This document shows, one piece after another, positions 1,951 to 60,684 of a stretch of DNA of 64,000 nt. The position numbers and the translations under genes are program-made. The DNA comes from Pseudomonadota bacterium. Its GTDB lineage: Bacteria > Pseudomonadota > Alphaproteobacteria > Sphingomonadales > Sphingomonadaceae. Every line of letters starts with the position of its first letter. The stretch's first letter is position 1. The DNA lies in contig JBCCJS010000001.1 in NCBI GenBank assembly GCA_039027675.1, positions 93,168 through 157,167 of the forward strand, read 5' to 3'. The notes under the pieces were generated by a model. It was given only the letters and a program-made list of their open reading frames with translations. It ran no database searches and had not been told where the DNA came from.

Positions 1951-2099
1951 GAGGAACGCCCAAAAAGCCCCTCTGTCCTACACGCTCTTCCTGTGGCACA
2001 GCCTTTAGCAATGTCGGTCAGCCCAATCACCCCAGCGATCTTTTCAAGCGCATTTTTGAGCCCAATCAGCGCTTAGAAAGCGGAAGTTTTCCTGATTAA

Positions 2100-2124
2100 G
2101 ACTGTGTAACCTGTGTCTCCTACA
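2100..2124. repeat. 25-bp dispersed motif, copy 1 (upstream of moaC)
   Basis: GACTGTGTAACCTGTGTCTCCTACA, 24/25 identical to 59193-59217. Confidence 0.9.
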
Positions 2125-2168
2125 GCCAACCACACGGGCGGCCTGACAGAGCCGAAGGAGCGAATCAG

Positions 2169-2657
2169 ATGAGCGAGCTAACCCATTTGAGCGAAGACGG
2201 CGCAGCGCGAATGGTCGATGTTGGCGCCAAGGCCGAAACGCACCGCATCGCCATCGCCAGCGGACGGATCACCATGGGCGCTCAGGCACTAAAGGCGATC
2301 AAGGCAGGCGATGCGCCCAAAGGCGATGTGCTGGGCACTGCGCGCCTTGCAGGGATCATGGCTGCCAAGCGCACTGGCGACCTCATCCCGCTGTGCCATC
2401 CGCTGGGACTCGAGGCGGTGACGGTCGAGTTCGAGTTTGAGCAAGCGGCAATCCGCGCAACCGCCACCGCCTCGCTAACCGGCAAGACCGGGGTCGAGAT
2501 GGAAGCGATGGTCGCTGTCTCCACCGCGCTGCTGACGATCTACGACATGGCCAAGGCGATCGACAAAGGCATGGTGATCGAAGGGGTGCGCCTGATCGAA
2601 AAGCGCGGCGGCAAGAGCGGCACATGGAAGGCCGCTGGGAAGGCCGAGGACACTTGA
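2169..2657 (+). CDS. moaC: Cyclic pyranopterin monophosphate synthase
   Basis: Motifs MVDVGAK, LIPLCHP, GVEMEA and IYDMAKA. Shine-Dalgarno (SD) AAGGAG upstream. Confidence 0.97.
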
Positions 2658-58357: not shown

Positions 58358-59092
58358 TCAAGCAGGCACTTCAATGCCGGCAAAGTCAAACACGCGGCCC
58401 GATTGCTCTGACCCCAGTTGTGACAGCACGCTTAGCAGGTTTGTTGCTGCGTCTGCGGGCTCGGTCAATTGGCCATTTGGCAGGCCTTTTTGGAACGGCT
58501 TGGAAAGGTCGCTGTCCACAGTGCCCGGATGAAGCCCCACGACCACGCCCTGCTTGTGTGTGCGCGCCATTTCCAGCGCGAAGTTCTTGAGCATCATATT
58601 GAGCGCGGCCTTGGATGCGCGGTAGGAGTGCCAGCCTCCCAGCCCATTGTCCGAGATCGAGCCGACACGCGCTGACAAAGCTGCGAAAACGAACGGCTCA
58701 GAACGCGGCATTAGCGGCAAGATATGCTTTGCGACCAGCGCCGGGCCGATCGTGTTAAGCGCCAGAACCTTGGCCATAGCCTCACCTGAGAGGCGTTTAA
58801 AGGTGCGCTCTGGTCCTGTTCCGTCCGCCAGTGTCAGCACGCCGCTGGCAACAATCACCCATTCGGGCGGCGCGCCGCGCATCAGGTCTGCCGCAGCTGC
58901 AATACTGGCCTCATCCTCCAGGTCGAAGGCGAAAGGGGTGATGGCGGCTCCTGCGGGCTCTTTCCCGCCGCGCGATCCGGCATAGACCGTCTCGCAACCG
59001 CCTGCGGCCAGCGTCTCACACAAGGCCCGGCCAATTCCTCCGGTGCTGCCAAAAACCGCCGCGCGGCGTGGGAATTTTCCTACATGGTTCAT
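58358..59092 (-). CDS. Short-chain dehydrogenase/reductase (CsgA/C-factor-like)
   Basis: Motifs GSTGGIG, SARVGSISDN..GGWHSYRASK and LHPGTVDSDLSKPF. Confidence 0.92.
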   Translation of the reverse strand: MNHVGKFPRRAAVFGSTGGIGRALCETLAAGGCETVYAGSRGGKEPAGAAITPFAFDLEDEASIAAAADLMRGAPPEWVIVASGVLTLADGTGPERTFKRLSGEAMAKVLALNTIGPALVAKHILPLMPRSEPFVFAALSARVGSISDNGLGGWHSYRASKAALNMMLKNFALEMARTHKQGVVVGLHPGTVDSDLSKPFQKGLPNGQLTEPADAATNLLSVLSQLGSEQSGRVFDFAGIEVPA

Positions 59093-59192
59093 ACTTGCTA
59101 ACAGTGAGAGACATGGCGATGAGTTCCCCTGATCTGCTTCAATTTTTTCGGCCGCAAGGTGGCTCTTGAGAGGGGTGCGTTTTCTACTTTTG

Positions 59193-59217
59193 GACTGTGT
59201 AACATGTGTCTCCTACA
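59193..59217. repeat. 25-bp dispersed motif, copy 2 (SDR/sdhB divergent region)
   Basis: GACTGTGTAACATGTGTCTCCTACA, 24/25 identical to 2100-2124. Confidence 0.9.
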
Positions 59218-59343
59218 CGCGTGCGCTCATATCGGGTAATGAACCGCGCTCAATTGGCGTCTCAAAGCTCGCAACACCGCGCATCTTGCCTCGCTCGCGC
59301 AGCGCGTTACATACCAAACAAACGCAATTGGGATAAATGCAGA

Positions 59344-60126
59344 ATGGCAACTTTCACGCTTCCGAAGAATTCGAAAATCAGAAAGGATGGAAAGGCGCAC
59401 AAGGCCAAGGGCGCCAAGCGCGCCAAGTCCTTCAAGATTTACCGCTACGATCCCGATAGCGGCAAGAACCCGCGCTATGACAAGTTCGAGATCGACCTTG
59501 AAGAATGCGGGCCGATGGTGCTGGATGCGCTGTTCAAGATCAAGAATGAGGTGGACCCAACGCTGACCTTCCGACGGTCCTGCCGCGAGGGGATTTGCGG
59601 TTCGTGCGCGATGAACCTCAACGGCAAGAACGCGCTGGCCTGCACCACCGCGATTGAGGACCTTGACGGTGAGATCCGCATCACTCCGCTGCCGCATATG
59701 GAAGTGATCAAGGATCTGGTGCCTGATTTCACGCACTTCTACGCGCAATACGCCTCTATCCGGCCCTGGCTTCAAACCGTCTCGACCACGCCATCGGGCA
59801 AGGAGCGGCTGCAATCGCCTGAACAGCGTGAGCAATTGGATGGCCTTTATGAGTGCATTCTGTGCGCGTGCTGCTCGACCTCGTGCCCGAGCTATTGGTG
59901 GAATTCGGACAAGTTCCTGGGACCCGCCATCCTGCTGCAGGCCTATCGCTGGCTCGCTGACAGCCGCGATGAGATGACGGGTGAGCGCCTTGATGCTCTC
60001 GAAGATCCGTTCCGTCTCTATCGCTGCCATACGATCATGAACTGCGCGAATGTCTGCCCCAAGGGCCTAAGCCCCGCCAAGGCGATCGCCGAGACCAAGA
60101 AGATGATGGCCGAACGCGCCATTTGA
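59344..60126 (+). CDS. sdhB: Succinate dehydrogenase iron-sulfur subunit
   Basis: Motifs [22 protein letters not shown] and [12 protein letters not shown]. Confidence 0.98.
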
Positions 60127-60183
60127 TGCGGCCTGCTTGGGGCGGCTTTCCTACTCGGGATGAAGCCGCTAACGCCCGCATTC

Positions 60184-60684
60184 ATGAGCAACGTACCTGT
60201 AGACCTACCCTTCGAGCACCGCCCGCTTTTGCCTGAGGAAACGGACGGCCAGGAGGGCTGGTACACCTGGAACATGATCGACCGCACGCGTTTCAACACG
60301 CAGGTTCTGGGCGAGATGTGGGTCCGCGCGGAAGGCAATCAGTGCCGCCTGCGCATGTTCCCCGAACGGCGCCACACCAATCTTGCTGATATGGTGCACG
60401 GCGCGGTGACTTTGGGCCTCACCGATATCGCGCTGTTTGCGACCATGCATATGATCGGCCACGGCGATGCAGGCCCTTCGGTGACGGTCGAACTATCGAG
60501 CCAGTTCGTTGGGCCCGGCGATCCGACCAAGCCGCTCGACGCAGTGACCGAAATCACGCAGGAAACGGGGCGCATGATGTTTGCACGCGGCCAGTGCGTT
60601 CAGGGCGATACTATCGTCACCAATTACTCCGGCATTGTGCGCAAGATGAAATCGAGACCGGCTGCCTCGGCTTCGGCCTCATGA
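60184..60684 (+). CDS. PaaI family (hotdog-fold) thioesterase
   Basis: HTNLADMVHGAVTLGLTD hotdog motif. Confidence 0.85.
   Translation: MSNVPVDLPFEHRPLLPEETDGQEGWYTWNMIDRTRFNTQVLGEMWVRAEGNQCRLRMFPERRHTNLADMVHGAVTLGLTDIALFATMHMIGHGDAGPSVTVELSSQFVGPGDPTKPLDAVTEITQETGRMMFARGQCVQGDTIVTNYSGIVRKMKSRPAASASAS

Follow-up and report, generated by a model that had tools for sequence, protein, structure and literature searches.

The window, which is the whole 64,000-nt stretch of DNA analysed here, carries a 25-bp motif at two sites on the plus strand, upstream of moaC (GACTGTGTAACCTGTGTCTCCTACA, 2100-2124) and upstream of sdhB (GACTGTGTAACATGTGTCTCCTACA, 59193-59217), with 24 of the 25 positions identical. 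When up to three mismatches were allowed, these two sites were the only matches in the window and 100 shuffles yielded none, for a chance expectation of 0, which bears out the identity and the common orientation reported in the initial annotation. The distances given there are also correct, the first copy ending 44 nt before the moaC ATG (2169) and the second lying 126 nt from the sdhB ATG (59344) and 100 nt from the ATG of a divergent SDR ORF (59092). A partner motif, TCCTACA, had been overlooked and is found upstream of both copies, at 1976-1982 and 59078-59084. It belongs to a module designated U, and the 25-mer to a module designated 2; a third U-type module lies behind sdhB. The features of these loci, in window coordinates, are the following.

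1971-1985, plus strand: module U of copy 1 (ctctgTCCTACAcgc), TCCTACA at 1976-1982, 124 nt 5' of the 25-mer
2011-2076, plus strand: predicted leaderless leader ORF of copy 1, 21 codons, TAG at 2074-2076
2053-2099, plus strand: upstream part of module 2 of copy 1, T-run at 2053-2057, GTTTTC at 2086-2091, N7, AGAC
2100-2127, plus strand: 25-mer of copy 1 with its nGC tail, 9-nt repeats CTGTGTAAC and CTGTGTCTC, then CTACA
2169-2657, plus strand: moaC (PF01967, 1.4e-54), downstream of copy 1
59073-59102, plus strand: module U of copy 2 (aatttTCCTACAtgg), TCCTACA at 59078-59084, -10-like GCTAAC at 59097-59102
59113-59169, plus strand: leader ORF of copy 2, predicted to be leaderless, 18 codons from the ATG at +35 of U to the TGA at 59167-59169
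59143-59192, plus strand: upstream part of module 2 of copy 2, T-run at 59143-59148, GGTGCG at 59174-59179, TTTTC at 59180-59184
59193-59220, plus strand: 25-mer of copy 2 with its cgc tail, TCCTACAcgc being a 10-mer also present in many U modules
59344-60126, plus strand: sdhB (Fer2_3 and Fer4 domains), downstream of copy 2
60147-60186, plus strand: predicted U-type promoter without module 2, TTTCCTACT at 60147-60155, GCTAAC at 60168-60173, ATG at 60184 (+35)

The module U of copy 1 begins 25 nt past the stop codon of the upstream trpC-like gene, and the ATG of the corresponding leader ORF is located 35 nt after the T of TCCTACA. The tetranucleotide preceding the 25-mer is AGAC in copy 1, versus GGAC in the family consensus, and in copy 2 seven nucleotides (N7) separate TTTTC from GGAC. 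Both leader ORFs of the window stop 23 nt short of the 25-mer. At copy 2, the ATG of the divergent SDR gene (59092, minus strand) falls between the TCCTACA and the GCTAAC of module U; either the SDR gene begins further in, at 59023 as picked by our own gene caller, or both start regions overlap.

Within the 25-mer, the 9-nt period of TGTGT that had been pointed out is confirmed, and no other feature is as strongly conserved in the family described below. The weak similarity suspected upstream of the two sites (T-run, GTTTTC) is likewise genuine and corresponds to a shared family trait. The TGTA-N12-TACA inverted repeat is present as described, but the significance attached to it does not stand: related genomes do not keep it, the motif of the relative G014 ending in AACA, and it is therefore probably not meaningful.

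A dispersed family with conserved positions and species dialects

A search of the Erythrobacter-type genome (3.05 Mb in 48 contigs, 60% G+C) with up to four mismatches allowed detected 51 copies of the 25-mer, 31 of which match the C/A consensus exactly, and a reversed control pattern gave no match genome-wide. Forty-eight of the 51 copies are intergenic according to our own gene calls (2799 genes, 88% coding), which were made with a crude ORF and codon-score caller, so that context counts may shift by a few loci. When the copies were aligned on the 25-mer, conservation showed a sharp 3' edge 3 nt beyond the motif (nGC) and, in the upstream direction, took in TTTG, GTTTTC and GGTG at fixed spacing, with a T-run at -50 to -46. 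The 25-mer is the 3' module of a bipartite unit of 110-200 nt, module U being found 96-174 nt upstream of it and in the same orientation in 46 of the 51 copies. The consensus of U reads C-R-T-T-T-TCCTACA-cgc, followed after 12-13 nt by a TA-containing element (gCTA; -10-like CTAA) and, 8-9 nt beyond this, often by an ATG or, in a minority, by a boxA-like sequence; its core TTTCCTACA occurs 61 times in the genome, including 55 intergenic occurrences. Module 2 takes the form TTTTC-N7-GGAC-N-GTGTxyC-NT-GTGTxyC and is located 60-140 nt after U and usually 16-220 nt before a housekeeping gene. Three genomes carry it alone at a conserved junction immediately before ppdK.

The downstream genes are diverse and of housekeeping type: lpdA-like, moaC, sdhB, rsmB-like, bamD, lysS, rpmI, pdxH, purA and rplK, and further folP, thioredoxin, GST, ruvA, chpT-like, ppdK and others. 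No common theme was found in the functions of these genes, and no DNA-binding protein among their products. A same-strand gene is faced by 33 of the 51 copies and not by the other 18; 10 copies lie between convergent genes. The initial annotation had considered an operator of one regulator coupling moaC to sdhB. It is true that the motif has one orientation at the two genes and is also present at the orthologous loci of the relatives G014 and G015, but 49 other copies adjoin unrelated genes, which contradicts an operator specific to this pair. With copies upstream of such varied housekeeping genes, no particular link between Mo-cofactor synthesis and sdhB is left, and we give this explanation a negligible chance. 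Its second proposal, the conserved end of an unrecognised small repeat family, is right as far as it goes, given the 51 copies.

The interiors of the units are unrelated between most copies. Seven of the 51 copies are alike over the whole ~190 bp unit, with 71-85% identity and boundaries just outside both motifs, indicating that the whole unit is what was duplicated in these cases. Such duplication is compatible with a promoter-carrying, non-autonomous mobile or selfish repeat ('mobile promoter' or MITE-like) kept homogeneous by copying, whose two ends would be required by a mobilising enzyme or a conversion process and whose effects on neighbouring genes would be by-products. This explanation would fit the dispersal of the 51 copies, conserved at their ends and free in their interiors, the 18 copies that face no gene, and the occurrence of three of the seven full-length duplicates inside 600-750 bp repeats beside an integrase fragment. 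It is at odds with the ends of the unit, which are directly oriented (TTTCCTACAcgc ... CTCCTACAcgc) and do not differ between sites, with the alignments of the copies, in which neither inverted arms nor site-varying target duplications are visible, and with the lack of hairpin excess on either strand. A search of the whole genome for a Y1 (IS200-like) RAYT transposase (PF01797) gave no match, with positive controls, and searches for a plasmid or phage origin found no match. Moreover, the whole-length similarity expected of a recent MITE-type spread is limited to the seven copies above; the invariance of the ends and the saturation of the interiors with change argue for long residence under selection and not for recent spread.

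Several individual loci show features of their own. Three copies outside the window lie within the 600-750 bp repeat (contigs C4:173850-174200, C6:1381-2125 and C19:37946-38538). Upstream of this repeat are five GTTGCAAC palindromes arranged in pairs (cgTTGCAACgggTTGCAAC), resembling iterons or operators, and one of the three copies is followed by an integrase-core (rve) fragment; the repeat is possibly part of an integrative element. At C5:128440-128500 (minus strand), between convergent genes, three additional CTCCTA(CA) repeats (cgcgaCTCCTACAtggcggCTCCTAgtgggcggCTCCTACAgc) follow directly past the 25-mer at 13-14 nt spacing. The variable interiors contain microsatellites, namely (GT)n of ~20 nt at C10:110271 and (CCTG)n of ~40 nt at locus L212 of G014, which could alter the length and the frame of the leader ORF. 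Locus-specific inverted repeats, such as CTCGATCA...TGATCGAG and GCTTGCA...TGCAAGC, are common to the interiors of the G014/G015 pairs L207/L264, L214/L270 and L217/L274, and their conservation in both relatives suggests that single leaders may bear extra signals of their own.

The motif was also detected in Erythrobacter, Porphyrobacter, Altererythrobacter and Novosphingobium records by a scan of one genome per species. In Erythrobacter and Porphyrobacter the cassette is present at about 50 loci per genome, and dialect forms of it occur across Sphingomonadaceae. Its general form across GTDB Sphingomonadaceae is GGAC-N-GTGTxyC-(A/C)T-GTGTxyC, in which most genomes have one and the same xy in their two 9-nt repeats, while xy changes from genome to genome (TC, GA, CA, AA or CT). 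The version of the box is uniform within a genome and different between species, the GH1-8-type dialect being GACTGTGTAACATGTGTATCCAACA; the genome of the window is unusual, as the first repeat carries AAC and the second CTC in all copies. Two other genera keep U, the ATG or boxA, and the TTTTC-N7-GGAC geometry.

The positions of the copies were compared by matching the nearest flanking genes of the relatives' copies to the genes flanking the copies of the window's genome on the same side. Copies flanking the same genes on the same side amounted to 18 of 32 in G014, 18 of 30 in G015 and 3 of 9 in G016, for a chance expectation of ~3.6% per flank. In two of the relatives, with flanking proteins ~75% identical to those of the window's genome, 56-60% of the copies thus share their positions, a proportion that speaks against a mobile repeat, and 23 of the 51 copies, including both window copies (moaC and sdhB), have a positional counterpart in relatives. 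As the same genes are flanked while both repeats change together between species, the positions are conserved and the box evolves in concert. The site is kept at orthologous promoters in relatives, as expected of a regulon. By contrast, identity at all 25 positions, including those that vary between species, exceeds that of a typical transcription-factor regulon, and full-length identity of the box could reflect copying between loci instead of selection.

G014 and G015 have ~23 loci in common, of which seven carry the same box allele, compared to ~7.4 expected if the three alleles were distributed independently. Such a pattern could result from exchange between loci or from repeated switches among a few permitted states. 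The junction between trpC and moaC is compact and without the element in six outgroup families and in ten members of the genus, a state that is ancestral, and the element-bearing state is patchy on a local tree based on three linked genes only. Such patchiness indicates gain or loss of loci in the course of time, for which allele exchange is a possible route. The patchy presence at trpC-moaC over a compact, empty ancestral state, the homogeneity within and divergence between genomes, and shared alleles that do not track orthologous loci are all points in favour of the mobile repeat, which, weighed with its missing hallmarks and the conserved positions, we regard as unlikely, although it is the main alternative. 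According to the initial annotation, many copies at random intergenic positions would have favoured a repeat over an operator; the copies are indeed many, yet they are not random, and this test does not settle the matter.

Module U, its fixed ATG and the predicted leader ORFs

In the genome of the window, 19 of 46 units have an ATG at +33 to +35 after the T of TCCTACA, and the same is true of 47 of 62 units in three same-genus relatives (G014, G015 and G016), against a background of ~2% per position for ATG inside element interiors. Given this position of the ATG, TCCTAC occupies the place of a -35 hexamer and a CTAA-type element precedes the ATG by 7-9 nt. The anatomy of module U resembles that of a promoter for leaderless transcripts. 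Such promoters are recognised by a -10 element 6-9 nt before the true start ATG, and the sequence of U has a -10-like element in front of its ATG. At one locus, U and its ATG directly open a GST gene without module 2, the Pfam domains of its product beginning at residues 4-6 (GST_N at residue 4). Similarly, the U-type module at 60147-60186 opens a 4HBT thioesterase gene (60184-60684) straight after sdhB; the domain fits the full length of the product and no room is left for a 5' UTR, so that this gene is predicted to be leaderless. The in-frame ATG at 60160, inside the promoter-like region, is probably not its true start. These two genes suggest that U and its ATG may serve together as promoter and leaderless start.

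Module U has a -10-like TA at +21/+22 but TTTCCT in the -35 position, and a consensus scan for canonical sigma-70 promoters (TTGACA-N17-TATAAT, both hexamers at 16-18 nt spacing) found none at the two window copies. In the same genome, a probable rrn leader carries a promoter of the canonical type (TTGACC-N17-TAGATG), which points to U as a different promoter class. A promoter within module 2 itself (TTGGAC-N17-CTACA(C)) was considered and rejected, as the hexamers are not kept in G014, G117 and G103 and the scan found none.

In a minority of units, 8 of 62 in the three relatives, the ATG is replaced by a boxA-like sequence (GCTCTTTGA). Four loci of the window's genome, two of them with the 25-mer, have boxA-like matches at +38 to +47 of U. 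The boxA-like sequence of the U units is identical to the GCTCTTTGAC-type sequence of this leader, which lies at one end of contig C33; most units carry the ATG instead. This rrn leader (C33:1-120, minus strand; TTGACC-N17-TAGATG, boxA-like GCTCTTTGAC) is a probable rRNA-operon leader that runs off the contig end; nowhere in the assembly could a 16S 5' end be found, so that the rRNA operon seems to have been left unassembled. Two boxA-like U modules without the 25-mer are located at C5:104300-104730 and C9:62200-62600 (minus strand; loci L290 and L291). Similar hairpins (GGCGACAcggtgtcaccttTGTCGCC and GGTGACccggtgtcaactttGTCACC) are found ~150 nt after U at both, with no significant Rfam match, and they are possibly a pair of small RNA genes.

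The frames opened by the fixed ATG are maintained. In G014, G015 and G016, all 47 ATG frames are open through the 25-mer, whereas among 94 control frames 39 are open up to its start and 22 past it (Fisher, 47/47 versus 39/94 open to the 25-mer start, 9e-14). The leader ORFs of the relatives are typically 40-48 codons long. Among the 61 ORFs reading past the box, 20 end in ATGA, GTGA or TGATG on the start of a long ORF, compared to 19 of 152 controls (p=0.0014), and about nine more leader ORFs run on in frame; gene starts in relatives were inferred from long ORFs and blastx. The pattern is weaker in the genome of the window, where 12 of 19 ATG frames reach the 25-mer. The maintenance of an open frame in 47 of 47 units counts further against a mobile repeat.

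Could the leader ORFs form a family of small-protein genes, as leaderless micro-proteins or Cys-codon sensors? The 25-mer would then encode a Cys motif, DCVTCV in frame 0 and LCNMCI or LCNLCL in frame 1, the invariant TGT triplets being Cys codons in two of the three frames. Besides the 47 ORFs open through the box, this explanation could draw on the avoidance of the stop-containing box frame in G014 and G015, and on several neighbours related to thiols or sulphur (thioredoxin, GST, an ArsC-family protein, a MetZ-like protein, a PLP enzyme, sdhB and a radical-SAM protein). However, the reading frame across the box varies, the three frames being used 19, 25 and 3 times in relatives and 7, 2 and 10 times in the genome of the window, and three of seven G016 ORFs read the box in a Cys-free frame. 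When would-be codons were compared across species, third positions proved fixed and first and second positions variable, with TGT never changed to TGC despite 60% G+C, which indicates that the box is constrained at the nucleotide level. A conserved peptide was rejected on account of the inconsistent frames. In addition, many ORFs of the window's genome end before the box and the downstream genes are mostly unrelated to cysteine, and we consider a small-protein family improbable.

A cis-acting RNA element or small RNA, in which an RNA-binding protein would use the box as a linear handle or a trans-RNA would pair with it, was weighed against the same units. It would also account for the copies facing no gene, and copies between convergent genes are kept between species, as at C9:10883 and its G014 counterpart. 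Module 2 lacks a -10-like element, so that its transcription must begin upstream, and base pairing would yield conservation at every one of the ~25 positions. Nevertheless, Rfam 15 detected only unrelated tRNA and chance matches, both in the window at the gathering threshold and in 30 copy loci at E<=0.1-1. RNAalifold run on the 51 copies found no consensus stem, and the whole-unit MFE z-scores were -0.04 (plus strand) and +0.21 (minus strand), i.e. no folding excess. No terminator or hairpin was found after the box and no terminator-like stem before the T-tract, nor was there folding excess within module 2 or on either side of it, and a search with the 10-mers of the box for an antisense partner RNA revealed no other plausible genomic locus with extended complementarity. 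An RNA element of this kind has, in our estimation, a slim chance of being correct.

The shared positions in relatives, combined with the promoter and leader-ORF anatomy, leave a regulatory role as the best reading, for a set of about 50 loci.

Comparison with known systems, proposed function and implications

A full-text literature search for a description of the motif found none. Sigma-54 sites (TGGCGC-N5-TTGA in some T-run boxes) and ECF-type spacing were compared by eye and rejected for misfits in spacing and across species. The alphaproteobacterial LexA box, the Pho box, the DnaA box and a parS half-site did not fit when compared by eye, and the Ter site and the CsrA GGA motif, compared in the same way, did not fit in spacing or across species.

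Among dispersed repeats, REP/REPIN populations are vertically inherited, long-lived and homogeneous within a genome while differing between species, according to PMC8049555. The unit resembles them in its tens of short intergenic copies, its persistence and its within-genome homogeneity. REPs, however, are palindromic hairpins with a GTAG head that need a RAYT, whereas the unit is asymmetric and bipartite, has promoter and ORF anatomy, shows no hairpin excess and is found in a genome without a Y1 transposase. Correia/ERIC-type repeats are miniature intergenic elements that carry promoters. As with these, and as with the 'putative mobile promoters' through which promoter reuse is proposed in PMC3575422, a repeated intergenic unit of ~100-200 bp would give a promoter to unrelated genes. 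The unit differs from Correia/ERIC repeats in having no terminal inverted repeats or target duplications, in its unrelated interiors and conserved positions, and in a box that evolves in concert.

Leader-ORF attenuators form a second group for comparison; in mycobacteria, poly-Cys leaderless leader ORFs serve as Cys-codon sensors. The likeness would lie in the short 5' ORF, here predicted to be leaderless and translated ahead of the gene, at whose start codon it often ends, and in Cys codons within the conserved part. The unit is distinguished by the lack of a terminator or antiterminator, by a conserved part that is constrained as nucleotides and read in two frames, and by one identical box common to ~50 unrelated operons. 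Direct-repeat operators are exemplified by the Pho box, made of direct repeats with a CTGT core, and by the alphaproteobacterial LexA box, GTTC-N7-GTTC. The unit likewise has two direct repeats and a CTGT core similar to that of the Pho box; in contrast to both, its period is 9 nt and not 10-11, all positions are fixed per genome, xy shifts in both repeats, and the set of downstream genes resembles neither a phosphate regulon nor an SOS regulon. Finally, the DUS of Neisseriaceae and the USS of Pasteurellaceae are genome-homogeneous species dialects with phased T-tracts, present in hundreds to thousands of copies, also within genes, and not tied to gene starts. The unit is alike in its dialects and T-tracts and differs by its ~50 copies, 48 of 51 intergenic, and its fixed partner motif. 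The element would be a repeat of the dispersed, cis-regulatory kind whose properties are combined in an unusual way; it fails the defining tests of REPIN populations, of mobile promoters or Correia-type repeats, of leader-ORF attenuators and of direct-repeat operators.

The explanation that we prefer, with middling confidence, is that the 25-mer is the core of a shared leader cassette at about 50 loci, read by a putative co-evolving factor. The anatomy of the unit, its maintained ORF, its conserved positions and the dialects are observed, and we infer transcription from U, translation of the leader ORF and a factor acting in trans. Module U would be a non-canonical promoter that initiates either a leaderless leader ORF or a boxA leader, and translation or Nus factors would take RNA polymerase and ribosomes over the 100-300 nt leader to the gene, the passage from leader ORF to gene often occurring via stop-start coupling. 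One putative sequence-specific factor, whose specificity would drift between species and pull all sites along, would recognise the tandem-repeat box, either in the DNA or in the RNA of the leader. The outcome would be a common control point for about 50 housekeeping transcription units. A more complete version, put forward tentatively and as possible rather than probable, is that about 50 housekeeping operons of Sphingomonadaceae combine a non-canonical promoter, a leaderless ORF and a box, the passage of the ORF over the box being gated by a co-evolving protein or guide RNA, or the sites being homogenised from a template.

In Erythrobacter, Porphyrobacter and Altererythrobacter genomes, the motif may be used to predict promoters as well as short ORFs that lack annotation, and the dinucleotide that varies in both repeats between species offers a handle for finding the factor. 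Even the mobile repeat would be a new type of bacterial repeat, one without hairpins or inverted ends and kept in place across flanking proteins that are ~75% identical. With the same positions and a species-specific box, the cassette would be one of the rare natural instances in which orthologous regulatory sites evolve in concert, and it would define a class of promoters for leaderless transcripts in an alphaproteobacterial lineage. If the preferred explanation is true, a large bacterial family would route much of its core metabolism and translation via one unannotated leader cassette, in a set that takes in ribosomal proteins L11 and L35, purA, folP, lysS, sdhB, lpdA, moaC and ppdK. This would constitute a global control layer with species-specific 'dialects', previously undescribed.
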